44,388 bases of DNA from a bacterium (lineage in GTDB: Bacteria; Patescibacteriota; Minisyncoccia; UBA6257; GWB1-50-10): NCBI GenBank assembly GCA_021801565.1, contig JAJYXV010000005.1, forward strand, positions 1 to 44,388, in the 5' to 3' direction. The translations under genes were made by a program, and so were the position numbers. The notes beneath the pieces are model-generated. The model made no database searches. It was not told the origin of the DNA and worked only from the letters and a program-made list of their open reading frames with translations. Numbering within the stretch: the first letter of the stretch is position 1; each line of letters opens with the position of its first letter. Of the stretch, positions 18,410-44,388 are shown piece after piece.

Positions 18410-18447
18410 CACACAGGGTACTATGACGCGTCATAGTACCCTGTGTG
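18410..18447. repeat. CTATGACGCGTCATAG-family palindrome, copy 3
   Basis: Perfect 38-bp CACACAGGGTACTATGACGCGTCATAGTACCCTGTGTG between the uvrB stop and the TrpR-like start. Confidence 0.92.
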
Positions 18448-27598: not shown

Positions 27599-27672
27599 TG
27601 GTGGACCTTAGGGGAATCGAACCCCTATCTCCCGGATGCAAACCGGGTGCTCTACCACTAAGCTAAAGGCCC
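27599..27672 (-). tRNA. tRNA-Ala(UGC)
   Basis: Cloverleaf with CCCGG-TTTGCAT-CCGGG anticodon arm, GTTCGA T-loop, G3:U70 pair and encoded CCA. Confidence 0.97.
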
Positions 27673-28013: not shown

Positions 28014-28088
28014 TGGTGGGCATGGGAGGGATCGAACCTCCGACCTCTGTCTTATCAGGACAGCGTTCTACCACTGAACTACATGCCC
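28014..28088 (-). tRNA. tRNA-Ile(GAU)
   Basis: Cloverleaf with CTGTC-CTGATAA-GACAG anticodon arm, GTTCGA T-loop and encoded CCA. Confidence 0.97.
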
Positions 28089-33697: not shown

Positions 33698-34969
33698 TTA
33701 CAATATTCCTTCATATTCTCTTACGGTAAGCTGCGATTCAATCTGCTTCATTACTTCGAGAGCCACAGATACCACGATAAGCAAGCTAGTTCCCCCAAGC
33801 GAAAACGCCTTAATTCCCGTTGCTATCTGAGTCAGATTTGGAAGTATCGCAATAATGCCGAGGAATAGTGCACCAAACAACGTTGTACGATGGACGATTT
33901 TCCCGATCATAAGTGATGTCGCTTGGCCTGGACGAATACCGGGAATAAAACCTCCGCTTCGCTGTAGATTTTTTGATATTTCTTCTGGATCAAATGTGAT
34001 AGCGGTGTAAAAATAAGTGAAAAGTACCACGAGCACAAAATAGAGAGCGCTATAAAGAAAAATATTATTAAAGAATGAAGAAACAAACTGATTTACCGTG
34101 AGCGACCACTCCTTTGAAATAATCGATATCGCTTGCGCAAAAAATTGCGGGAATAAAAGAAGTGAGATTGCAAAAATAATCGGAATCACTCCCGCTTGAT
34201 TCACTTTGAGTGGAAGATACGTTGAGGCTCCTCCATACATTTTATTTCCCCGCACCTGCTTTGCATACGAAACAGGTACCTTTCGTTCCCCCTCGCTAAT
34301 ATATACCACTCCTGCAATGACAATAATAGCCAACACAATGAAAGTAATATATGTGGGGATCATTTCCGGAGAAAAATTTAAAAGACTCTGTCCGATTTTC
34401 TGTGGAAGTGAACTTACGATACCAGCAAAAATAATGAGTGAAACGCCATTTCCGATTTTATACTCAGAGATAAGCTCTCCAATCCACATAAGAAGTAAAC
34501 TCCCCGCGGTAATAACAATTACATTAATAAGCAACTGATTAAGAGGGAGGGGAGGAACTACCCCACGCGAGGTGAGAAGATTAATAAATCCATATGCCTG
34601 CATCATTGCAAGAGGCACAGTAAGATATCTTGAAATTCGATTAAATTTTGCTCTTCCTTCGGCGCCTTCCTCGTAATATGCCTTTTTTAAATTTGGGAAA
34701 ATGATAGTAAGCAACTGCATAATAATCGTTGCGGTGATATATGGACCGACACCAAGCATTACAACAGAAAGATTACTAAGCCCACCACCGGAAAATAAAT
34801 CAAGAAAACCTAAAAGTTGATTTGAGTTAAAAAAATCATGGAGACGCCCCGAATCTACCCCAGGAACGGGAATCGCTGCAAGCAACCGAAATACAAGGAG
34901 GAGAAACAGTACTATAAGTACTTTCTTCCTCAAATCGGGGATCTTAAAAACTTGGAGAAATTTATTCAT
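33698..34969 (-). CDS. secY: Preprotein translocase subunit SecY
   Basis: LGVGPYITATII, GNGVSLIIFAG, IPGIRPG and GGTSLLIVV motifs; start MNKF at 34969. Confidence 0.98.
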   Translation of the reverse strand: MNKFLQVFKIPDLRKKVLIVLFLLLVFRLLAAIPVPGVDSGRLHDFFNSNQLLGFLDLFSGGGLSNLSVVMLGVGPYITATIIMQLLTIIFPNLKKAYYEEGAEGRAKFNRISRYLTVPLAMMQAYGFINLLTSRGVVPPLPLNQLLINVIVITAGSLLLMWIGELISEYKIGNGVSLIIFAGIVSSLPQKIGQSLLNFSPEMIPTYITFIVLAIIVIAGVVYISEGERKVPVSYAKQVRGNKMYGGASTYLPLKVNQAGVIPIIFAISLLLFPQFFAQAISIISKEWSLTVNQFVSSFFNNIFLYSALYFVLVVLFTYFYTAITFDPEEISKNLQRSGGFIPGIRPGQATSLMIGKIVHRTTLFGALFLGIIAILPNLTQIATGIKAFSLGGTSLLIVVSVALEVMKQIESQLTVREYEGIL

Positions 34970-35130
34970 TCCGTTCATGACAGGAAACGTAAACATTTCC
35001 GCCTGCCTGCGCAGGCAGGTACGTCTTTTTTACATTTATCGCGCCTTTCTCTATTGTTTTAAATATGTACATGTTTTTAAATATAATTTTAATCACTTTC
35101 CCCTAAAAGACCAGTAATAGCGGGATTTAT
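34965..35130. mobile_element. Start-codon-embedded TIR element at secY (degenerate), including flanking repeats
   Basis: Plus strand TTCAT-TCCGTTCATGAC...TAATAGCGGGA-TTTAT; contains a ~54-bp cassette shared with the rplB copy. Confidence 0.7.
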
Positions 35131-35146
35131 TATTTATATTTTTCTA

Positions 35147-35575
35147 TTATTTTACCTCCCCGCCGGCTTTTTCAATCTTTTTTTTAGCGCCTTCTGATAT
35201 CGGAACCCCTTGGATAAAAAACGCGGTTTTTATCCCATCATTTCCAATAATTTTCACATTATCCGTTGCACGAGCAATAATTCCTTTCTCCAAAAAAGAA
35301 TTCTTCGTAATTGTCTTTTCTCCCTTAAAAACATGCTCAAGACGAGAAATTTTAAACTCAGTAACCCGCGCTCGTACTTTCTTTGCTGGATTTTTTATAC
35401 CGCGTAGCTTCGGAAATTTAAGAAGAATATCGCGTTCCGCGGGACGAAGTTTCCTCCCCGCACGTGCTCCTTGTCCTTTTTGACCACGCCCGGAAGTTGT
35501 ACCACGCTTTCCTCCGCGCCCAACTCTTTTTTCTCTCATTATTTTATATTTCGAACGTAACTCGTGAATTTGCAT
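35147..35575 (-). CDS. rplO: 50S ribosomal protein uL15
   Basis: RVGRGG..G.TSGRGQKGQ and KIEKAGG motifs. Confidence 0.96.
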   Translation of the reverse strand: MQIHELRSKYKIMREKRVGRGGKRGTTSGRGQKGQGARAGRKLRPAERDILLKFPKLRGIKNPAKKVRARVTEFKISRLEHVFKGEKTITKNSFLEKGIIARATDNVKIIGNDGIKTAFFIQGVPISEGAKKKIEKAGGEVK

Positions 35576-35579
35576 GTGT

Positions 35580-36086
35580 TTATTCTTTTATTATTTTCTT
35601 TTCTTTCGCCGGTATCTTTTTTAACTTTTTTAATGCCTCAACGGTTGCCATTGCATTGGTGAGTTTATTTGTTGTCCTTCCTATAATTTTAGCAGATATA
35701 TCTTTTACCCCAGCAAGCTCAAGAATTGCACGACATGAACCTCCCGCGATTAATCCATTTCCCTGACGTGCTGGCTTCAATCGAACGCGTGCCGCACTAT
35801 ATTTTGCCTCAACATCATGAAGAATGGTCCGCTTATCTTTTAATTCGAGAAATACAATATTTTTCACTGCCTGGTGTTTGGCCTTCTGTACTGCGGCAGC
35901 AACATCAAGACCCTTTGCAACACCAACACCAACCTTTCCTCTTCGATCACCCACAACAATAGTTGCACGGAAACTGAAACGTTTTCCTCCTGCAACAACA
36001 CGGGTCACGCGACGCACTTCAAGCACCTTATCTTCATATTCGCTTTTCTTTTGATTCATCCTTGGTTGATTCATTCTTGGTTGCAT
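35580..36086 (-). CDS. rpsE: 30S ribosomal protein uS5
   Basis: RVVAGGKRFSF and NGLIAGG motifs; start at 36086 avoids overlap with rplR. Confidence 0.96.
   Translation of the reverse strand: MQPRMNQPRMNQKKSEYEDKVLEVRRVTRVVAGGKRFSFRATIVVGDRRGKVGVGVAKGLDVAAAVQKAKHQAVKNIVFLELKDKRTILHDVEAKYSAARVRLKPARQGNGLIAGGSCRAILELAGVKDISAKIIGRTTNKLTNAMATVEALKKLKKIPAKEKKIIKE
36051..36083. repeat. 15-bp tandem repeat at the rpsE 5' end
   Basis: TTGATTCATCCTTGG TTGATTCATTCTTGG TTG; encodes QPRMNQPRMNQ. Confidence 0.85.
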
Positions 36087-36090
36087 AAAA

Positions 36091-36453
36091 TTAAAAATTA
36101 AGTCCGCCCTCTCGTGCACCATCCGCGACTGCTTTTACACGTCCATGATAGCGATAGCTTGCACGATCAAATACCGCCTTTGTAATTTCTTTTTCTTTTG
36201 CTTTCTTTGCCAAAAGTTTTCCAATTTCTTTCGAAATATCCTGTTTTTTACTCTTTACATTTTTCACCGACAGAGAAGAAGCAGAAACAATCGTTTTTCC
36301 ACTACTGTCATCAATAAGTTGAGCATAAATATGTGCATTGCTTCTAAACACCGAAAGACGTGGACGGTCAGCGGTTCCTCGGGAAACGGACTTGCGGACA
36401 CGAGCTAATCTTCTTATTTTTCTTTTGTGTGTTATGTGTTCTTTAATACTCAT
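36091..36453 (-). CDS. rplR: 50S ribosomal protein uL18
   Basis: [10 protein letters not shown] and [17 protein letters not shown] motifs. Confidence 0.97.
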
Positions 36454-36465
36454 AATAATTTAAAA

Positions 36466-37014
36466 TTAGGAAGACGAGGTTCCACTCTTCTTTCCCGCCT
36501 TACGACGAATTACTTCATCACTATAATGAAATCCCTTACCCTTATATGGTTCTGGCTTTTTTAATGCACGAATTTCAGCAGCAATTTTTCCAACTATCAT
36601 CTTATCGGCTCCTCGTATTTTCAAAATAGAGTTTTTTTCAACATCAAACACAATACCGGGAACTACAGCATAACGGACTGGATGAGAAAAACCAAGGCTC
36701 AATATAAGACCATCGCCCTCTTTTGTTACACGATATCCGACACCTTCGAGAATGAGGGTTTTTTCATATTCTTTCAAAAGTCCCTGTACCGCATTATTTG
36801 CAAGAGATCTCATTGTTCCCCAATTGCTTCGAGCTTGTTTTGTATTATTTAATACCTCAAAAGAAAGTTCAGTACCTTCAAGTTTTGGTTTTACGCCATA
36901 AAGAAGCGGAACGCTTAACGATTCCTTTTTATTCTTTAATATAATAGCCGTATCAGAAATTTGCGCGGTAATTCCCTCTGAAATTTGTATCGGTTTTTTT
37001 CCTATTTTACTCAT
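36466..37014 (-). CDS. rplF: 50S ribosomal protein uL6
   Basis: MSKIGKKPI start and PEPYKGKG motif. Confidence 0.97.
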   Translation of the reverse strand: MSKIGKKPIQISEGITAQISDTAIILKNKKESLSVPLLYGVKPKLEGTELSFEVLNNTKQARSNWGTMRSLANNAVQGLLKEYEKTLILEGVGYRVTKEGDGLILSLGFSHPVRYAVVPGIVFDVEKNSILKIRGADKMIVGKIAAEIRALKKPEPYKGKGFHYSDEVIRRKAGKKSGTSSS

Positions 37015-37039
37015 AATCTTTTCGTATTTTCGTAATTGT

Positions 37040-37411
37040 TTACCACACCTCAAATAACATTTGGCCTCCGACTTTTTCCTTTTTAGCCCGAACTCCTGAC
37101 ATAATTCCCTTCGATGTAGAGACTATAAGAAGTCCAAAACCGCCTTTCACTGATTTAAACTTATCATATCCAGCATACACTTTTATTGATGGACGGCTTA
37201 AAAATTTAAGACCAGTAATTGGTTTCTCTGGATTCAAAGAAATTTCAAGTGTTTTCTTCGGTACTCTTCCTTTTATTTCTACGCGTTTTAAAAAACCGTA
37301 TCTCACCAGTTCTTCGGCAATTGCATAATCCATTTTCGAAAATGCTGATTTTATCCCCTTCTTTCCCGCCTGCTCTGCGTTTTTTATTTTTATGAGAAAA
37401 TCTATATACAT
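37040..37411 (-). CDS. rpsH: 30S ribosomal protein uS8
   Basis: SRPS, STSKGIM and VGG motifs; operon position. Confidence 0.96.
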   Translation of the reverse strand: MYIDFLIKIKNAEQAGKKGIKSAFSKMDYAIAEELVRYGFLKRVEIKGRVPKKTLEISLNPEKPITGLKFLSRPSIKVYAGYDKFKSVKGGFGLLIVSTSKGIMSGVRAKKEKVGGQMLFEVW

Positions 37412-37440
37412 ATGTGTTGTTTGAATTTATTTGCAGTTAT

Positions 37441-37626
37441 TTACCAACTAGATTTTTTTATTCCAGGAATTTCGCCTTTACTTGCAAGCTCACGGAAACA
37501 AATTCTACACATATTGAAATCACGCATATATCCTCGCTTGCGACCGCACCGAAAACACCTTCGGACTATCCGCGTAGAAAATTTCGGTTTTTTATTTGCA
37601 CGGGCAATGGTTGATGTTTTCGCCAT
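37441..37626 (-). CDS. rpsN: 30S ribosomal protein uS14, Zn-binding type
   Basis: RCFRCGR...MCRICFRE, 61 aa. Confidence 0.97.
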
Positions 37627-37630
37627 AATG

Positions 37631-38110
37631 TTATTTCTTTAATGGTACTCCGCTTAATTTGTAGAAATCAACTGCTTTCTCTCTATTTTTATTCTTTGGA
37701 ACAACAGTGACCTGTAATCCGAAATTCACAGTCGAGTGATCAATATTAATTTCCGGAAATACATATTGCTCTCGAAACCCAATATTTAGATTGCCATGTT
37801 CATCAATATGATCAACAGAAATTCCACGAAAATCTTTTACACGAGGTAATGCGAGGTGAATAAGTTTTTTAAAAAAATCTTCCATGCGTGTTCCACGAAG
37901 CGTCACCTGAAGTCCCACAGGATCTCCCGTGCGCGTTTTAAAATTAGCGATCGCTTTTTTTGCTTGTCGCAATGCTGGTTTTTGTCCGGTGATAATAGAA
38001 AGTTCCTTTATCACCTCTGGAAGCACCTTATCTTTAAACTGCGGACGTTGTGTAAGTTTTCCTATTCCAATATTTACCACTATTTTTTCGATTTGTTTTT
38101 TTATTTCCAT
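37631..38110 (-). CDS. rplE: 50S ribosomal protein uL5 (N-terminally short)
   Basis: [15 protein letters not shown] and LPRVKDFRG motifs. Confidence 0.96.
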
Positions 38111-38123
38111 ATTTCAAAAAATA

Positions 38124-38432
38124 TTAAAAAACGGTCTGACATTTCCTGCAATACCGGACCTTTTTTGTATCTTTCTCCGCTTTGAACCCAACGCGAATCG
38201 CTTTTCCACAAGAAGGACACACCACAAGAGCATTCGAAGATATAAGCGGACGCGTAACAGAAACTATTTCCCCCTTTTCTCCCTGCCGCTTTGGTCGAAC
38301 ATGTTTTTTGTACACATTTACTCCTTCCACGGTAATTTTTCCTATTTTCGTATGCACGTGAATCACCTTCCCGGTTTTTCCGCGATCCTTCCCCGAAATT
38401 ATTTTAACTGTGTCTCCTTTTTTTATTTTCAT
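38124..38432 (-). CDS. rplX: 50S ribosomal protein uL24
   Basis: KGDTVKIISGKDRGKTG KOW motif. Confidence 0.97.
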   Translation of the reverse strand: MKIKKGDTVKIISGKDRGKTGKVIHVHTKIGKITVEGVNVYKKHVRPKRQGEKGEIVSVTRPLISSNALVVCPSCGKAIRVGFKAEKDTKKVRYCRKCQTVF

Positions 38433-38555
38433 CCCGTTAGAAATAGATCGCGACTAAACGACCCATGGTAGATTCTATTACGACTGAATTTTTCATTATA
38501 TATTCCATAATTGTTTTTTATTTTACATACGATCGCGATTTCTAACGGGATTCAT
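38428..38555. mobile_element. Start-codon-embedded TIR element at rplX, including flanking repeats
   Basis: Perfect 14-bp IR ATCCCGTTAGAAAT (38431-38444) / ATTTCTAACGGGAT (38538-38551); TTCAT at 38428-38432 and 38551-38555. Confidence 0.88.
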
Positions 38556-38560
38556 ATGTA

Positions 38561-38929
38561 TTACACGAGTTCCTCTGCAAGCGACGCAATAGTATCATAT
38601 CCTTTTTCTTTTATTTCTCTTGGTATCGGACCAAAGATTCTTGTTGCTTTTGGCTCCTTTCCTTTATCAAGAATAACCACAGCATTATCATCGAAACGCA
38701 CATATGATCCGTCTTTTCTGCGCAGTGCCTGTTTCTGTCGAACAATTAATCCGTGGACAATATCCTTTTTTTTCACCGCTTTCCGTGGTTCCGCTGATTG
38801 GACCGATGCAATAATAATATCACCAACGCAAGAATATCGCTTTCTGCTTCCTCCTAAAATGCGAAAACAACGCACAAATTTTGCTCCTGAATTATCTGCA
38901 ACTTTTAATATGGCTCGTTCTTGTATCAT
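38561..38929 (-). CDS. rplN: 50S ribosomal protein uL14
   Basis: VADNSGA, FDDNAVV and TRIFGP motifs. Confidence 0.98.
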   Translation of the reverse strand: MIQERAILKVADNSGAKFVRCFRILGGSRKRYSCVGDIIIASVQSAEPRKAVKKKDIVHGLIVRQKQALRRKDGSYVRFDDNAVVILDKGKEPKATRIFGPIPREIKEKGYDTIASLAEELV

Positions 38930-38934
38930 ATATA

Positions 38935-39207
38935 TTATGCTTTACTATCTTTTTTTGTATCAACCGCTTTTACAATATTCCAACGCTTTTCTTTCGAAAA
39001 TGGACGTGTTTCTTCAATAATCACTGTCATTCCGGTTTTATATGAATTTCCTTCGTCATGCGCTTTGTATCGTTTCGTTATTTTATAAAACTTGTGATAT
39101 TGTGAATGTTTTTTTGTCCGGGTAACAGCAATAACCCGGGTCTTATTCATTTTGTCAGACACCACCACGCCTTGTAATTTTCTTTTTTGTACTTTCTTTA
39201 TGGTCAT
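38935..39207 (-). CDS. rpsQ: 30S ribosomal protein uS17
   Basis: GVVVSDKMNKT, AHDE and ETRPFSKEKRW motifs. Confidence 0.97.
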   Translation of the reverse strand: MTIKKVQKRKLQGVVVSDKMNKTRVIAVTRTKKHSQYHKFYKITKRYKAHDEGNSYKTGMTVIIEETRPFSKEKRWNIVKAVDTKKDSKA

Positions 39208-39221
39208 ACGTTTTATAATTA

Positions 39222-39419
39222 TTATTTTGCTCTTCCATTTAAAAGCGTTTCAAACTGAGCAATTGATTTTTTAATTTCTTTCATCTCCTTTAGGCTCTTC
39301 ACCTTACCAGTTGCTAAATCTATTTTCAAATTTACCATGCGCTCTTTAAGAGTTTTTAATTCTTTTTCAAGCTCCGGCATCGGTTTTTCTTTATATTCTT
39401 GAAATGCTCTTTTTTTCAT
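39222..39419 (-). CDS. rpmC: 50S ribosomal protein uL29
   Basis: Helical-hairpin pattern, KK.IAQ..T; operon position. Confidence 0.93.
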   Translation of the reverse strand: MKKRAFQEYKEKPMPELEKELKTLKERMVNLKIDLATGKVKSLKEMKEIKKSIAQFETLLNGRAK

Positions 39420-39423
39420 ATGT

Positions 39424-39837
39424 TTATTCTTTTGCGATTATTTTCGTTTTTACGGGCAATTTGTGTCCGGCAAGCCGAAACGCTTCAACGGCACTTGATT
39501 TCGGCACGCCACCAATCTCAAAAAGTATTCTTCCTGGTTTTACTGGAGTAACAAAGTGATCAACATTACCCTTTCCTCCCCCAAGAGTAACTTCTGGTGG
39601 AAGTTTTGTAACTGGTTTATCCGGAAATATGCGGATCCAAATTTTTCCCTCACGCTTCAGTGAGTGAGCTATGGTTTTTCTCACCGCTTCAATTTGACGT
39701 GCAGTAATCCATATACTTCCGAGTGCTTGCAATCCGTATTCTCCATAACTTACCGTAAGTCCGCGAGTTTCCTTGATGCGGCCGCGCGAACGTCCTTTCT
39801 GCATTTTTCTATGTTTTTGTTTCTTTGGCTGTAACAT
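39424..39837 (-). CDS. rplP: 50S ribosomal protein uL16
   Basis: MLQPKK and [12 protein letters not shown] motifs. Confidence 0.98.
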
Positions 39838-39848
39838 ATCTTTGAAAA

Positions 39849-40568
39849 TTACCTTGCTTTCCGTGGAAATCGTTGCGACTGCGGCTGTGAATGTTGTGCC
39901 GATGTTTCTTCAAAAATTTCACCTTTATAAATCCATACTTTTATACCAACAGTACCATAGGTGTTAAAAGAGGTAGCTTCGGCATAGTCAATATTTGCTC
40001 GCAAAGTTTGAAGTGGCATTCTTCCAAAAATCATCCAGTCACTTCTCGAAATTTCCGCTCCATTTAAACGCCCGGATACTTTTATTTTTGCTCCTTGGAT
40101 TTCTTTATTTTGTTTCATTAATTCCAAATTTCTTTTCAGCACGGTACGATATGGTTTCCTTTTTTCAATATCAAACGCAATCTGCTGTGCAGTCACCGCA
40201 GCAGAAATCTCAGATCGTTTTAATTCTTCAATGTTTATATATAACGAAAAGACAGTTGCTTTTTTATTCTTTATTCTCAATTTACGTATTCCTTTTATTA
40301 CCGCGGTTTTTAAATCTTCAATCCCCTTTCCCCCTCTTCCAATAATGAGTCCCGGCCTACTTGCCCGAACAAGCACGCGTATTGTAGTGCCAATGCGCTC
40401 AATCTCAATACCCGCAATGCCTGCCGCCAAAATTTTCTCGCGGATAGTTTTTCGAATAAGACTATCCTCCTCGAGGAAAAATGCGAGTGATTTTTTATAG
40501 AACCACCGACTTCCCCAAGGGAGTGTTATTCCGAGACGTAATGTATTTGGTTTAATTTTTTGTGCCAT
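39849..40568 (-). CDS. rpsC: 30S ribosomal protein uS3
   Basis: [19 protein letters not shown] and [11 protein letters not shown] motifs. Confidence 0.98.
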
Positions 40569-40580
40569 AATAAGCGGAAT

Positions 40581-41093
40581 TTAAATTGATTTTCTACGGA
40601 ATACTTTTCTAAAACCCGTTGGTTCGGAAGATTTTTTTCCTCCATCGGAAATAATATCTTCTTTTTTCTTTTTCTGAGAAGTTTTCTTTTCTTTCTTTTC
40701 CGAGACCTTCTTTTTTGGTTTTTCAGGAATAACATACTTCACCTTCTTCATATTTTCTTTCACCCCAAGCACCACAATAACATGACTGGTTTTCTTCTCT
40801 ATAATAGCTGATGAGCCACGTGCACGAGGTGTCCATCGTTTTTGTTTCGGGCCTTGATCTACTCTAATCTCTTTTATATAAAGTGCCTCTGGATCAATTT
40901 TTTTAAATACTGCATTCGCACGTGCGGAATTAACTAATTTCAATAAATCAGCACTCGGTCTCCGAGGAGAAAGCATAAGTTGAGCCTGTGCCTCTTTTAA
41001 CTGCAATCCGCGTATCATATCAGCAACAAAACGCACTTTTCGCGGTGCTATTTTTAGATATCGTACTATTGCTGTTGCGTTGAGTTCTTTCAT
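40581..41093 (-). CDS. rplV: 50S ribosomal protein uL22 with a Lys-rich C-terminal extension
   Basis: APRKVRFVAD and RARG...SHV motifs; start MKELNA at 41093. Confidence 0.96.
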   Translation of the reverse strand: MKELNATAIVRYLKIAPRKVRFVADMIRGLQLKEAQAQLMLSPRRPSADLLKLVNSARANAVFKKIDPEALYIKEIRVDQGPKQKRWTPRARGSSAIIEKKTSHVIVVLGVKENMKKVKYVIPEKPKKKVSEKKEKKTSQKKKKEDIISDGGKKSSEPTGFRKVFRRKSI

Positions 41094-41097
41094 AAAA

Positions 41098-41409
41098 TTA
41101 CTTTGCTGCTGGTGGTTGTACTGCTTTTGCTTTTTGTTCCAATTCTTTTTGCATTTTTCCTCCATGTCTTACAAATTTCCTTGTAGGCGAAAATTCTCCA
41201 AGACGATGACCGATCATATCTTCCGTAATGGTAATTTCGATAAATGTTTTTCCGTTATGAACCGCAAACGTGTACCCTACCATTTCTGGAGCGATTTCTG
41301 AGGCGCGAGACCACGTCTTTATCACGGTTTTTCCATCCGGCTTTACCCCGGCTATTTTCTTCAATAACTTTGGATCAACGTATGGACCTTTTTTTGATGA
41401 CCTACTCAT
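41098..41409 (-). CDS. rpsS: 30S ribosomal protein uS19
   Basis: KKGPYVD, KTWSR and [11 protein letters not shown] motifs. Confidence 0.98.
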
Positions 41410-41458
41410 ATGTTTGTTTATACTACGCGATGTAATACCGTGTAGTCAATTAAATCTT

Positions 41459-42283
41459 CTATTTCCTTCGCTTCATAATAAGCTTATTCGACCACTTTTT
41501 TCTATTACGCGTTTTTCTTCCTCCTGTGATTTTTCCCCATTTCGTTTTTGGTCTACGAGTACCGCGTTGAGTTCTTCCCTCTCCACCTCCATACGGATGA
41601 TCGCGTGGATTCATAACGGATCCGCGAACTGTAGGACGCACTCCAAGAGCTCGAGAACGGCCAGCCTTCCCGATATTTACAAGATTATGTTCAATATTTG
41701 AAACTTGACCAATTGATGCAAAACATTCTGATAACACTTTCCGTACTTCGCCAGATGATAATTTTAAATGAGTGTACCCCGCTTCGTGCGCAAGTACCTG
41801 CACCGACACACCGGCTGAGCGTGCCATTTGCCCCCCTTTCCCTGGAGTAAGTTCAATATTATGGATAAATGTTCCCACTGGGATTCTTTTTAATTGCGTC
41901 CTGTTCCCTGGTTCAAACGGTGCTTCATTTGAAGTGCTGACAGTTGCCCCTACTTTTAATCCATTTGCAGCAAGTATATATCTTCTCTCTCCATCCTTAT
42001 ATGTTATCAACGCAATAAATGCGGTACGATATGGATCATATTCAATTGTCTCAACAACTCCTGGAACCCCGATTTTATTCTGTTTGAAATCAACATTCCG
42101 GTACACAATTTTATTCCCCCCACCTTGATGGCGGGTGGTTATCCGTCCCTGATTATTTCTTCCCGAGTTTTGTTTTAACTTTTGAGTAAGCTGCTTTAAC
42201 GGTTTTTTCCGAGTAATATTGGCGCGATAATCAACTGACGTATAGTGTCTGCGTGATGCTGTTGTTGGTTTATATTGTTTCAT
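41459..42283 (-). CDS. rplB: 50S ribosomal protein uL2
   Basis: GRNNQGRIT, YDPYR and MNPRDHPYGGGEG motifs. Confidence 0.98.
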   Translation of the reverse strand: MKQYKPTTASRRHYTSVDYRANITRKKPLKQLTQKLKQNSGRNNQGRITTRHQGGGNKIVYRNVDFKQNKIGVPGVVETIEYDPYRTAFIALITYKDGERRYILAANGLKVGATVSTSNEAPFEPGNRTQLKRIPVGTFIHNIELTPGKGGQMARSAGVSVQVLAHEAGYTHLKLSSGEVRKVLSECFASIGQVSNIEHNLVNIGKAGRSRALGVRPTVRGSVMNPRDHPYGGGEGRTQRGTRRPKTKWGKITGGRKTRNRKKWSNKLIMKRRK

Positions 42284-42439
42284 CCCGTTAATAATAGGAA
42301 ACGTTTACGTTTCCGCCTGCCTGCGCAGGCAGGTACGTTTTTTTACATGAATTTCGTCCTTTTTTTGTCTGTGTATAAAACATAATTTTATTTTCTTGTT
42401 TCTTTAATAATGATAAAAACTATTATGAACGGGATTCAT
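42279..42439. mobile_element. Start-codon-embedded TIR element at rplB, including flanking repeats
   Basis: 15-bp IR with one mismatch: ATCCCGTTAATAATA (42282-42296) / TATTATGAACGGGAT (42421-42435); TTCAT on both flanks. Confidence 0.88.
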
Positions 42440-42442
42440 ACA

Positions 42443-42784
42443 CTAAATAATTTCTATCTTTTGTCCTTTTTTAATTTTCACCACAGCTTTTTTTGTACCT
42501 TGTCGCCGTTGTGTTGAATATCGAAATCTCTTTATTTTTCCCTTTATATTCGTCATCGTCATTGAAACAACATTCACTCCGTATCTTTTTTCAATTTCTT
42601 CTTTCACCATTTTCTTATTTGCATGAGGATACACCAAAAACGTATAGCGGTCTTCACCATAAAGACGTTGTGCTTTTTCACTCACCCAGGGTCTTTTGAT
42701 GATACTTCGAATCACCATCGCAGAAGTTCCTGCTATTTCTTTTTTCTCTCCTTTTTCTTTTGTTTTATTTTTTACAGGACTCAT
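42443..42784 (-). CDS. rplW: 50S ribosomal protein uL23
   Basis: RPWVSEKA, YTFLV..ANK and KKAVV motifs. Confidence 0.95.
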   Translation of the reverse strand: MSPVKNKTKEKGEKKEIAGTSAMVIRSIIKRPWVSEKAQRLYGEDRYTFLVYPHANKKMVKEEIEKRYGVNVVSMTMTNIKGKIKRFRYSTQRRQGTKKAVVKIKKGQKIEII

Positions 42785-42790
42785 ATTATG

Positions 42791-43417
42791 TTATTCTTCC
42801 GATTTTTTAACATGCAACACCGCATCTTTTTCAATAAAAATAAATTTATGCGCTACACATTCGTATGCGTTTAGCGACGATACAGAAATAACCAATACAC
42901 CGGGAATATTCCGTGCTCCCAAAAACGCATTCTTTTTTTCTTTCGCTACTACCACAAGAGCACTTGCCTGTTTTTTGAAAAAATATTTCAAAAACGCGGC
43001 ATACTCTTTTGTCTTTGCGCTTCCAAAATCAAAATTGTCTACTACAATCAATTGTTTATCTGTAAATTTTTTGGAAAGCGTCGAAAAAAGTGCCGCTTGT
43101 CTCATTTTTTTATTTGTTTTCTTTGAAAAATCACGATCATTTCGTGGTCCATGAGTGATACCTCCTCCTGACCAAATTGGAGAACGAGTTGAACCGTGTC
43201 GAGCCCGCCCCGTATGTTTTTGACGCCACGGTTTTTTTCCTCCACCGGCAACTTCTCCTCTCGTTTTTGTGTGTGCAATCGTATTTCTTTTGTTTGCAAG
43301 ATGCGCGGTTACTATTTGATGCACCAATTCAGGATTCCATTTCACCGAAAAAACCCCTGCCGGTAATGCAAGTGTTCCTACTTTTTTATTCTCTTTATTA
43401 ACAACGTCAATATTCAT
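42791..43417 (-). CDS. rplD: 50S ribosomal protein uL4 (in-frame upstream ATG at 43576 adds 53 element-derived codons)
   Basis: TKTRGEVAGGGKKPWRQKHTGRARHG; homology begins at MNIDVV. Confidence 0.96.
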   Translation of the reverse strand: MNIDVVNKENKKVGTLALPAGVFSVKWNPELVHQIVTAHLANKRNTIAHTKTRGEVAGGGKKPWRQKHTGRARHGSTRSPIWSGGGITHGPRNDRDFSKKTNKKMRQAALFSTLSKKFTDKQLIVVDNFDFGSAKTKEYAAFLKYFFKKQASALVVVAKEKKNAFLGARNIPGVLVISVSSLNAYECVAHKFIFIEKDAVLHVKKSEE

Positions 43418-43576
43418 TCCGTTTAGAAACTCGCCTGAATGAGAAGATTTATTCTTTCGGGCAGGTAGATCACGATCCGAATTTTTTAATTCGGTAGTGT
43501 GAGTATTTTTTGATTTTTTTTCAACCGTTTGTTTCATATTTGTCTTTTTGTGATCATAATTTCTAACAGAATTCAT
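43413..43576. mobile_element. Start-codon-embedded TIR element at rplD, including flanking repeats
   Basis: ATTCCGTTTAGAAAC (43416-43430) / ATTTCTAACAGAAT (43559-43572); TTCAT on both flanks. Confidence 0.8.
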
Positions 43577-43587
43577 AAATATAAAAA

Positions 43588-44022
43588 TTATTTCTTTATT
43601 ACCTCAACAACTGTTCCGCGCATTCCCGGAACCGCGCCGCGAAGCATGAGAATTCCTTTTTCTAAATCAATGTTTGCCACTAAAAGATTTTTTACATGTG
43701 CACGTTCCATACCCATGTGTCCCGCCATTTTTCTCCCCTTCACGACACGCTGTGGAGCCGTTGGACCCAAAGATCCAGGAGCTCTCATGCGATTTTTTTG
43801 TCCATGTGTTGCTGGACCACCATGAAATCCATGGCGTTTTACCACCCCTTGAAATCCTCTTCCTTTACTGAGTCCACTTACTGAAACTTTTTCTCCCACA
43901 GAAAAACCCTCGAGCGTATCATTTTCGTTCTTTTTCTTCAACTCAAGAACCGTTACGGGAACAACCGAATCACCTTTCCAAAGTTGAGTCATTTTTACCT
44001 TTTTTGCAAAAATTTTCTTCAT
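43588..44022 (-). CDS. rplC: 50S ribosomal protein uL3 (internally shortened, 144 aa)
   Basis: KK.KMTQ, PVTV, SKGRGFQGVVKRHGF and MAGHMG motifs. Confidence 0.95.
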   Translation of the reverse strand: MKKIFAKKVKMTQLWKGDSVVPVTVLELKKKNENDTLEGFSVGEKVSVSGLSKGRGFQGVVKRHGFHGGPATHGQKNRMRAPGSLGPTAPQRVVKGRKMAGHMGMERAHVKNLLVANIDLEKGILMLRGAVPGMRGTVVEVIKK

Positions 44023-44123
44023 CCCTTCACATAATACAAGATTGTATACACACAATCCGTTTCTATCTGGTTAGCATTATAAAATCCTTCACTAAGAGCC
44101 ATTGCCTTACGTGAGGGATTCAT
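44018..44123. mobile_element. Probable start-codon-embedded element at rplC (variant ends)
   Basis: ATCCCTTCAC (44021) / GTGAGGGAT (44119); TTCAT on both flanks; a second internal arm ATCCTTCACTAAG at 44084. Confidence 0.6.
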
Positions 44124-44163
44124 ACTACGCCAAAATATCCTAATATGTTTTCGATAAGAAAAC

Positions 44164-44183
44164 AACAGGGGGAGAGCCCTGTT
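44164..44183 (-). promoter_or_regulatory. Leader hairpin with U-rich tail upstream of rplC
   Basis: Transcript AACAGGG-CUCUCC-CCCUGUU followed by GUUUUCUU. Confidence 0.5.
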
Positions 44184-44214
44184 TTCCTGTTTATAGTAAT
44201 GGCTAACCCATATT

Positions 44215-44243
44215 ATCGTAACCTACCCCGTTATTTTCGTCAA
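44215..44243 (-). promoter_or_regulatory. Putative promoter of the rplC operon
   Basis: TTGACG-N17-TACGAT. Confidence 0.6.
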
Positions 44244-44280
44244 CCGTTTTCCTCTGATTTTATGCTGTTCAGACGAGATA

Positions 44281-44388
44281 TGTTTTCAGGTCAATAGCTT
44301 GTAACCATATTCATATAAAATATCGACAGGGGTCTTCATCATGAGTGCCATGTGTGGTCTCTCATGGTTGTAGTAGCGAAGGAACTTC
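44281..44388 (-). mobile_element. Right end of IS481-family insertion sequence (truncated by window edge)
   Basis: Terminus TGTTTTCAGGTCAATAGCTTGTAACCA matches the IS end at 127; preceded by an integrase-core tail. Confidence 0.8.
44286..44387 (-). CDS. IS481-family transposase, C-terminal fragment (partial)
   Basis: Manual translation KFLRYYNHERPHMALMMKTPVDILYEYGYKLLT*; YN..RPH..L...TP motif. Confidence 0.8.
   Translation of the reverse strand, partial: KFLRYYNHERPHMALMMKTPVDILYEYGYKLLT

Follow-up and report, generated by a model that had tools for sequence, protein, structure and literature searches.

Inverted-repeat elements on start codons of a Patescibacteria ribosomal-protein operon and their probable relation to very small GIY-YIG nuclease elements

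The 44,388-nucleotide stretch of DNA analysed here (contig JAJYXV010000005.1 of assembly GCA_021801565.1, referred to below as the window) comes from a Patescibacteria/Paceibacterota bacterium of the candidate phyla radiation (CPR). Within it, five genes of the rplC-to-secY ribosomal-protein operon carry at their starts an inverted-repeat element enclosed by two copies of the pentamer ATGAA, one of which is mutated at secY. This arrangement raises the question of what these elements are, how they came to lie on the start codons of essential genes, and by which enzyme they could have been moved. Judged by the comparisons described below, the five sequences are probably relatives, similar to transposable elements of the miniature inverted-repeat kind (MITEs), of a widespread family of ultra-small mobile elements whose full-length members encode a GIY-YIG nuclease, the putative mobilising enzyme.

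Five elements in the ribosomal-protein operon

The operon, which is of the S10-spc type, occupies 33.7-44.1 kb of the window on the minus strand. Its intergenic gaps are mostly 4-14 nt long and no Shine-Dalgarno (SD) sequence is found ahead of its genes, as exemplified by the gaps at 39420-39423, 38930-38934 and 37627-37630 (ACAT, TATAT and CATT, respectively). Five gaps are long, and each of them reads, on the minus (coding) strand, ATGAA, an inverted-repeat element of 99-159 nt, and ATGAA again, at the starts of rplC, rplD, rplB, rplX and secY. An earlier note, made from the sequence of the window alone, had described these five gaps together with the ATAAA found on the left of secY; the description was confirmed, and its distances, stop spacings and repeat lengths were all reproduced. 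The two ATG codons are 101 (rplC), 159 (rplD), 156 (rplB), 123 (rplX) and 161 bp (secY) apart, and the upstream one follows the previous stop codon by 3 (rplB), 5 (rplX), 11 (rplD) and 16 nt (secY). Seven genes of the operon have an ATGAA start, five of the seven being occupied by an element. It is the second ATG that represents the true start, the tblastn alignments of L3, L4, L2, L24 and SecY to relatives beginning at residue 1 or 2.

The rplC element spans 44018-44123 (minus strand, like the other four) when both pentamers are included, the element proper being the 99 nt at 44021-44119. It is flanked by GA at 44120-44121 and 44019-44020, with the rebuilt ATG at 44022-44020, and an upstream open reading frame (uORF) of 34 codons runs from the left ATG to a TGA that overlaps the rebuilt ATG. 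The element at rplD (43413-43576 with pentamers; element proper 43416-43572, 157 nt) has degenerate ends (ATTCTGTT...AAACGGAAT), and in both rplD and rplC the inverted repeats are weaker than in rplX and rplB. At rplB (42279-42439; element proper 42282-42435, 154 nt) the inverted repeat amounts to 15/16 bp, while at rplX (38428-38555; element proper 38431-38551, 121 nt) it is a perfect 14 bp, ATCCCGTTAGAAAT / ATTTCTAACGGGAT. Short uORFs cover the 5' arm in these two elements, that of rplX being a 10-codon frame (MNPVRNRDRM and a stop) opened by the left ATG. The secY element (34965-35130; element proper 34968-35126, 159 nt) has a dead left codon, its left pentamer being mutated to ATAAA, as well as decayed inverted repeats and terminal stem, and looks the oldest of the five; over the 71 nt at its 3' side it matches the rplB element, in the same orientation, at 89% identity. 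A 2-bp duplication of GA is intact in four of the five copies, the mutated left copy of secY being the exception.

In the RNA folds of four of the five copies, a terminal stem begins at the last base of the left ATGAA and closes at the T of the rebuilt ATG, with the A and U of the rebuilt AUG as paired bases. The fold z-scores are -3.7 for rplX, -6.7 for rplB and -3.8 for rplD, with 0/200 shuffles folding as well in each case, -2.8 for rplC (2/200 shuffles) and -1.2 for secY. The elements also cause systematic annotation errors. That of rplD is in frame and without a stop, and L4 is called as a protein of 261 aa in which 53 aa of the N-terminus are false, the homology to relatives beginning at the rebuilt ATG; SecY is called as 432 aa with nine false residues owing to its element (34965-34996); and L3 is truncated in the gene calls of the same-species assembly L081, where it is called from a later ATG (134 aa).

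No further copies were detected outside the operon when the 44-kb window was scanned by pattern, by BLAST and for inverted repeats. Taken singly and with mismatches allowed, the 12-mer of the repeat is no more frequent in the window than chance would give, whereas the paired inverted-repeat arrangement exceeds chance. A scan of the window at Rfam gathering thresholds returned two tRNAs only, with no RNA family at the elements.

Comparison with relatives indicates that the elements were inserted and are not ancestral spacers, as the earlier note had proposed. In L001, the closest genome in the species collection (~82% nucleotide and ~90% protein identity), the junctions are tight and element-free at all five sites, rplD having ATGAC and the other four one ATGAA each; the empty sites read agtATGAATAAAATTTTTGC (rplC), tatatttATGACTATTGAC (rplD), tttaatgtATGAAACAATAT (rplB), ctaatatatATGAAAATAAAAAAAGG (rplX) and aaataATGAACAAATTT (secY). 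Seven more distant relatives are likewise tight at the five sites, save for a secY copy in L006, and the contrary outcome named in that note, relatives sharing the spacers and offering no empty site, was thus not observed. The L006 copy (CPR), at the secY start, is independent, with perfect 15-bp repeats and a different interior; another independent copy lies at the rpsS start of L009 (Wolfebacteria), flanked by ATGA/.../GAGCAGG (here and below, slashes mark boundaries), and has ends similar to those of the rplX element.

Six independent same-species assemblies (99.6-99.97% identity) carry all five elements without gaps; hence the elements are not assembly artefacts and are fixed in the lineage. 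Nine of the 42 positions variable among strains fall within element DNA, which makes up 6% of the span, and six of these nine sit in the rplC copy (44031-44110, compared with L085 and L086), all of them transitions. Such fast-changing interiors fit non-functional, decaying or trans-mobilised derivatives. The rplC terminal-stem partners 44110 and 44031 form a G·U pair in the window, G-C in L086 and A·C in L085.

The family: ends, target site and start codons

Metagenome and viral contigs were searched with the inverted repeats only (ATCCCGTTAGA, a gap, and TCTAACGGGAT), the flanks being left free. The metagenome sample comprises at least 120 contigs and 124 matched element sequences, all distinct, of which 123 have enough flank; all counts of metagenome copies are counts among the matches listed. 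An exact 2-bp target duplication was found in 97 of the 123 copies and the pattern T/NN/A in 94. When the flanks were tabulated against gene starts, a check suggested by the earlier note, a start codon was seen to end at the first duplicated base in 85 of 123 copies (ATG 76, GTG 6, TTG 3), while ~0.6% would be expected by chance according to our own calculation. At these 85 sites the duplication is GA in 73, GG in 8, GT in 3 and GC in 1, the base that follows it is A in 84, and 72 sites read ATGAA. A longer target mimicking ATGAAT is unsupported, the next position being T in 29 and A in 30 of the 85.

The same copies decide where the element ends. Two readings of the boundary had been offered for the window, namely a 5-bp duplication of ATGAA, or a 2-bp duplication of GA with the start codon supplied by the terminal AT of the element. 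In nine copies the left flank is GTG or TTG and the right copy is ATG in every one, and in 12 copies with non-GA duplications (GG, GT, GC) the left and right sides match. The terminal AT therefore belongs to the element and the duplication consists of the G and the next base, so that the second reading is right and the first is not upheld. The element proper is accordingly delimited by ATCCCGTT...AACGGGAT, with a family-typical inverted repeat of 14 bp, in which positions 12-14 differ among copies yet match between the two arms. The duplicated G, following the terminal AT, produces a new ATG directly before the untouched reading frame, and the original start codon with its coupling context remains upstream of the element.

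The orientation relative to the gene is equally regular: the open reading frame (ORF) that begins at the rebuilt ATG has a median length of 189 codons, versus 16 in the opposite orientation. The downstream ORFs are housekeeping genes, including those for L24 (twice), L9, S2, SSB, enolase, aldolase, CTP synthase, topoisomerase I, FtsW, SecDF and TrmD, and the genes next to family copies span 92 different Pfam families. An SD-like motif precedes the right repeat in 22 copies versus 3 at the mirror position, and the uORF frames are unconstrained across the family (25/30/30). Insertion into the regenerated site has occurred repeatedly, as tandem copies in L347 (ATGG-element-GG-element-GG) and nested copies in L303 show.

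In viral contigs, four of the five full inverted-repeat pairs lie exactly on a gene start, the left ATG being located 2-9 nt past the previous stop in three of the four (those checked); the fifth pair (L088) is intergenic and has other flanks. Single-end scans added two more repeat-paired copies, each present in two contigs, with the same start-codon arrangement. All six viral start-site copies have an SD-like AAGGAG or AAAAGG directly before the right repeat. In view of the SD-like motif of the phage copies versus the SD-less operon of the window, the 3' part of the element seems adapted to the initiation mode of the host. The single-end 14-mer hits in viral contigs are otherwise mostly due to chance, and a 1562-nt 'pair' in L093 was rejected, as it encloses tail-fibre genes on the other strand.

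Whether start codons are truly targeted, or a sequence-specific insertion is merely filtered by selection, was the question posed by the earlier note. The sequence preference is real (T/NN/A, mostly ATGAA), and clean copies off start codons exist: about ten copies have a clean duplication elsewhere, several of them at ATAA/AA or GTAA/AA. A DNA-level preference filtered by selection would therefore be sufficient in principle. T/NN/A by itself, however, is too common to explain a start-codon occupancy of ~70-80%. In the window as reconstructed before insertion there are 200 ATGAA sites, 18 of which are intergenic and ~14 at ORF starts, and all five insertions are at starts in one operon, which gives (14/32)^5, or ~0.02 as a rough figure. 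By this rough count more insertions seem to lie on start codons than a filter of pure neutrality would leave, and the question is settled in part. Three additional factors may contribute: only start-codon copies would have their nuclease (see below) translated and would hence propagate, ORF-less copies could arise in place from nuclease copies already on start codons, and hopping may be local.

Copies with a GIY-YIG nuclease gene

The earlier note saw no mobiliser in the window, which is correct, no GIY-YIG gene having been found there, and suggested a search for a transposase with the same ends. This search did not yield a conventional transposase: inverted-repeat pairs 0.25-6 kb apart that might enclose one corresponded only to paired separate small elements and to copies of ~280 nt with a nuclease gene. 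It is these full-length elements, found elsewhere, that provide the candidate, as they have the same ends and enclose one ORF, which codes for an 86-aa GIY-YIG nuclease and is the only ORF seen between these repeats. In L281, L329, L356 and L418, ATCCCGTTAGAG...CTCTAACGGGAT surround the 86-aa ORF, and L418 is a perfect copy, aaggtatATGA/ATCCCGTTAGAGAAA..ORF..TTTCTCTAACGGGAT/GAaaatt. The gene is co-directional with the downstream gene at 10 of the 10 loci inspected.

The 86-aa protein matches the Pfam GIY-YIG family (PF01541) with an E-value of ~1e-14. The right inverted repeat provides its terminal codons (...R F L S L T G), and the TGA stop of the ORF consists of the last T of the element and the GA of the duplication, overlapping the rebuilt ATG (ATGA); a stop built from the duplication is a possible reason why GA (or AA) duplications predominate. 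Clustered at 90% identity, the nuclease family amounts to more than 4169 groups, the commonest protein length being 86 aa; it occurs in Patescibacteria, Omnitrophota and Flavobacteriales and is annotated solely as 'GIY-YIG nuclease family protein'. No variation is seen at the catalytic residues Y5, Y16, R26, H30 and E62 or at G18, at least 90% of sequences retain the catalytic N76, and the C-terminus is invariant save for one position. An AlphaFold model of the protein (pLDDT 92) has as its nearest structures the UPF0213 protein BH0048, Slx1 and the catalytic domain of I-TevI; among the structure and sequence neighbours, 1zg2 was retrieved with an E-value of 5e-9 and Slx1 with a TM-score of ~0.63.

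A sister subfamily with the ends ACCCCGTT...AACGGGGT rebuilds GTG (L388). Identical nuclease protein (P0081) is encoded at two loci of one contig. The identical proteins P0009 and P0058 also occur on many contigs, each at the same locus, and provide no evidence of recent hops. A scan of viral contigs with a single protein found no nuclease; a profile scan of these contigs returned four distant relatives, of which the three with inspectable ends are without ATCCCGTT termini.

As for the copies of the window, they display the features of MITEs, namely inverted repeats, a target duplication with empty sites, a length of 99-159 nt, five copies in 10 kb and a longer coding element sharing the ends, and are MITEs by definition. 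We know of no insertion sequence (IS) family that corresponds to them in target logic, in fixed orientation and in having a nuclease-only partner. The rplB and secY elements keep CGTTTCC together with the repeat, which would read KRFLLLTG-stop and LRFLS-stop, respectively, like the 3' end of the nuclease ORF, and in rplB this stretch lies in the frame used by the GIY-YIG ORF. By our own reading, rplB also keeps ATG TTT TAT ACA (MFYT), which resembles the N-terminus of the nuclease. The window elements yielded no GIY-YIG match above noise. Most likely they are non-autonomous, ORF-less, MITE-like relatives of the nuclease elements, which were most likely derived from full-length members by internal deletion.

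Some related sequences lie apart from this arrangement. The repeats do not surround the classical UPF0213-type paralogues of L294 and L305. The rplB (42316-42333) and secY (35002-35019) elements each contain an 18-nt GC-rich palindrome, CCTGCCTGCGCAGGCAGG, and near-identical palindromes interrupt tRNA-like D-loop sequences (GGTA/.../GAGC) near distant GIY-YIG genes beside tRNA genes (L396, L380), which suggests a sister family associated with tRNA genes.

Proposed movement, alternatives and neighbouring loci

The GIY-YIG nuclease is the candidate mobilising enzyme and would cut both the ends of the element and its target with a stagger of 2 nt. A 2-bp duplication agrees with the 2-nt 3' overhangs left by GIY-YIG enzymes such as I-TevI and Eco29kI. 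A non-palindromic 2-nt overhang would fix the orientation of the element relative to the gene, and joining could be completed by host ligase or repair. The Slx1-like fold and the covarying repeat positions 12-14 leave it possible that the enzyme reads a hairpin or cruciform rather than a sequence. Full-length copies might be expressed by a translational relay, in which ribosomes pass from the host start through a short uORF to the nuclease ORF and, via the ATGA overlap, to the host gene. In ORF-less copies, ribosomes starting at the left ATG would translate the 5' arm, melt the terminal stem and expose the rebuilt ATG. Persistence in essential operons would be accounted for by the start site being the one place in a compact genome where an insertion spares the protein. 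It may well be, although we hesitate to call it probable, that a new class of prokaryotic and phage transposable element is represented here, with a bare 86-residue GIY-YIG 'transposase', landing on start codons of streamlined genomes, restoring the ATG by its own end, exploiting translation of the host gene by means of stop-start overlaps, and leaving ORF-less derivatives in the initiation regions of core genes, ribosomal-protein operons among them, across CPR, other phyla and phages.

Several observations weigh against movement by this nuclease. We know of no GIY-YIG enzyme that acts as a transposase, and joining would have to be left to host ligase or repair. The GIY-YIG gene is absent from the window, from the 20-kb contigs of the strains and from L001-L010, and what is left of coding sequence in the window copies is weak, the best E-values being 0.03-0.08 in a very small search space, and is in part imposed by the conservation of the repeats. 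Twenty-six of the 123 copies are without an exact 2-bp duplication, and full-length copies in L281, L398, L408 and L422 lack a clean duplication or a left start codon. In addition, L419 (1001-1761) and L421 (1-684), on the same contig, share 100% identical units of 391 nt that hold the GIY-YIG gene of the ACCCCGTT subfamily and reach beyond the repeats, the identity beginning 42 nt ahead of the left repeat, a TATAAT being included, and ending ~90 nt past the right one. This shared unit hints at another way of moving.

Some of these points would suit ordinary MITEs moved in trans by a conventional transposase, for example a DDE enzyme with a 2-bp duplication, the GIY-YIG ORF being a passenger. 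Inverted repeats together with a target duplication are the classical DDE signature, and both the nuclease-bearing copies without clean duplications and the L419/L421 unit passing beyond the repeats would be accommodated. This explanation is nevertheless considered unlikely, given that the GIY-YIG gene is the only ORF between the repeats, the C-terminus and stop of the nuclease are made of the right repeat and the duplication, the duplication is not TA as in IS630/mariner, and the orientation fixed relative to the gene is unpredicted by symmetric DDE ends. A similarly small chance is given to homing driven by the nuclease without true transposition, in which ATGAA-like starts would be cut and repaired from an occupied site via 4-5 nt of microhomology, the apparent duplication being inherited microhomology and not the product of a staggered cut. 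GIY-YIG genes are classical homing endonucleases, ATGAA is present at 72 of the 85 sites, the GG, GT and GC variants agree between the two sides, as would be expected of heritable flanks, and a left GTG or TTG combined with a right ATG is also compatible. Five nucleotides of microhomology are, however, very short for templated repair, and the T/NN/A symmetry around a 2-bp core, as well as the triple-GG array of L347, is simpler under a staggered cut; homing and the staggered-cut model are inseparable from sequence alone.

Two further explanations carry far less weight. Insertion 3' of ATGAA by a single-strand (IS200/IS605 or palindrome-associated transposable element (PATE)-like) or serine-recombinase (IS607-like) mechanism, with the right ATGAA or a GA crossover borne by the element, would in either form give a fixed orientation and an apparent repeat, and the circle junction AACGGGAT-GA-ATCCCGTT would make a neat palindromic recombination site. 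The right 2 bp, however, covary with the left flank in the 12 non-GA cases and are not constant, no TnpA or serine recombinase is associated, and IS200/IS605-type elements are without end-to-end inverted repeats, all of which makes this very improbable. That the sequences are not mobile DNA at all seems hardly credible, whether they are taken for regulatory RNA hairpins arisen in place (operators, RNase III sites) or for RNA removed or bypassed at the RNA level (intron-like, or by a gene-60-like hop). Strong terminal stems in four of the five copies and the matched AUGAA at both ends speak for such a role, but the elements are absent from the closest relative L001, the same ends occur with target duplications at more than 100 genes, unrelated to one another, of bacteria and phages, a nuclease is encoded by full-length copies, no Rfam family matches, and the interior evolves fast (9/42 strain polymorphisms in 6% of the span). 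For bypassing in particular, there is no stop after the 'take-off' AUG and no nascent-peptide signal.

Membership of established classes was considered as well. IS630/Tc1-mariner-derived MITEs do not correspond, the duplications here being GA, GG, GT or GC with no DDE gene between such ends; nor do IS200/IS605-type PATEs, on account of the end-to-end inverted repeats and the covariation of the right 2 bp with the left flank. The order GTTAGAA ... TTCTAAC on either strand is not the RYYYAAC ... GTTRRRY of an integron attC site. In a bypass of the T4 gene 60 type a stop would follow the AUG, where here AAU follows, and there is no preceding peptide. A classical homing endonuclease gene does not match a catalytic domain only, occupying genes of 92 Pfam families. 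Resemblances to bulge-helix-bulge (BHB) introns, dif/Xer sites and tRNA T-arms failed on sequence geometry.

Under the favoured explanation, MITE-like derivatives of nuclease elements, the nearest known systems are each similar in part. Bacterial MITEs (Correia/NEMIS of Neisseria, RUP, ERIC) are likewise short, ORF-less and many-copied, with inverted repeats, a short duplication and long hairpins, and are co-transcribed with their neighbours. They derive, however, from DDE insertion sequences and land in intergenic regions regardless of reading frame, whereas the window elements sit on a start codon rebuilt by their own AT, in fixed orientation, and share their ends with a nuclease-only element. 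Free-standing GIY-YIG homing genes (T4 seg, I-TevI family) are also selfish nuclease genes between phage or bacterial genes and make 2-nt staggered cuts, but the enzymes exceed 200 aa, have separate DNA-binding domains and spread through homologous repair into one cognate site without inverted repeats or duplication, in contrast to a bare 86-aa catalytic domain bounded by repeats at hundreds of unrelated sites. UPF0213/YhbQ (COG2827) and Slx1 are the nearest sequence and structure relatives of the nuclease, of similar size and with a stand-alone catalytic domain; neither function nor mobility has been established for UPF0213 proteins, and Slx1 is a cellular structure-specific nuclease needing Slx4. 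Rickettsia palindromic elements are small palindromic mobile elements tolerated in essential genes, the product remaining functional, yet they insert in frame inside the coding sequence, are translated as an extra peptide and have no known encoded enzyme, whereas here the protein is unchanged and the start codon duplicated. Penelope-like retroelements use a GIY-YIG nuclease for integration, but they are eukaryotic, kilobase-sized and dependent on reverse transcriptase, and nothing comparable is present here.

No description of the element family was found in the full-text literature searched, which leaves most subscription journals outside its coverage, and an earlier account is possible. If the proposed autonomy is true, an element of ~280 bp would be the smallest autonomous mobile element known to us and would point to a possible new enzymatic route to transposition, by a GIY-YIG nuclease in an extremely small package. 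The elements illustrate how selfish DNA can enter even the most constrained regions of very compact genomes and leave the genes there unbroken, the start codon serving as a regenerated safe harbour. The elements also alter, by uORF and hairpin, the translation-initiation context of essential genes in hosts whose initiation rules are poorly known, and a nuclease of such small size, whose cut sites follow a defined logic, could serve as a tool.

The surroundings of the operon contain several other repeats and insertions. At 44290-44388 (minus strand), just upstream of the rplC promoter, the DNA encodes the C-terminus of a transposase of the rve_3 integrase type (E 7.5e-6). This site differs among same-species strains: the window and L083 (1-150) have the transposase, L081 (8380-8530), L084 and L086 have S10 and a hairpin, and L082 (8120-8500) has a different insert, ~260 nt longer. 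The transposase fragment was rejected as a mobiliser of the five elements, being an unrelated strain-variable insertion whose junction is without a TCCCGTT end. Directly upstream of rplC, at 44124-44262 (minus strand), a conserved promoter-like TTGACG-17-TACGAT is followed by the hairpin AAAACAGGGCTCTCCCCCTGTTGTTTTC, which is kept in L001, L002, L005 and L006 and may be an S10-operon leader or attenuator.

In L010 (7247-14152; CPR), other palindromic repeats of 60-240 nt, with motifs like TTCGTAATATTCG and ACTAATTTAC, fill many gaps of the same operon. They are not on start codons, and it follows that other hairpin element families also colonise this operon. The tRNA-Ala(TGC) and tRNA-Ile(GAT) genes of the window, at 27599-27672 and 28014-28088 (minus strand), are ~340 nt apart, with no rRNA gene in the 44 kb, and a perfect 19+19 bp palindrome (CACACAGGGTACTATGACG/CGTCATAGTACCCTGTGTG) is located at 18410-18447 between two minus-strand ORFs.

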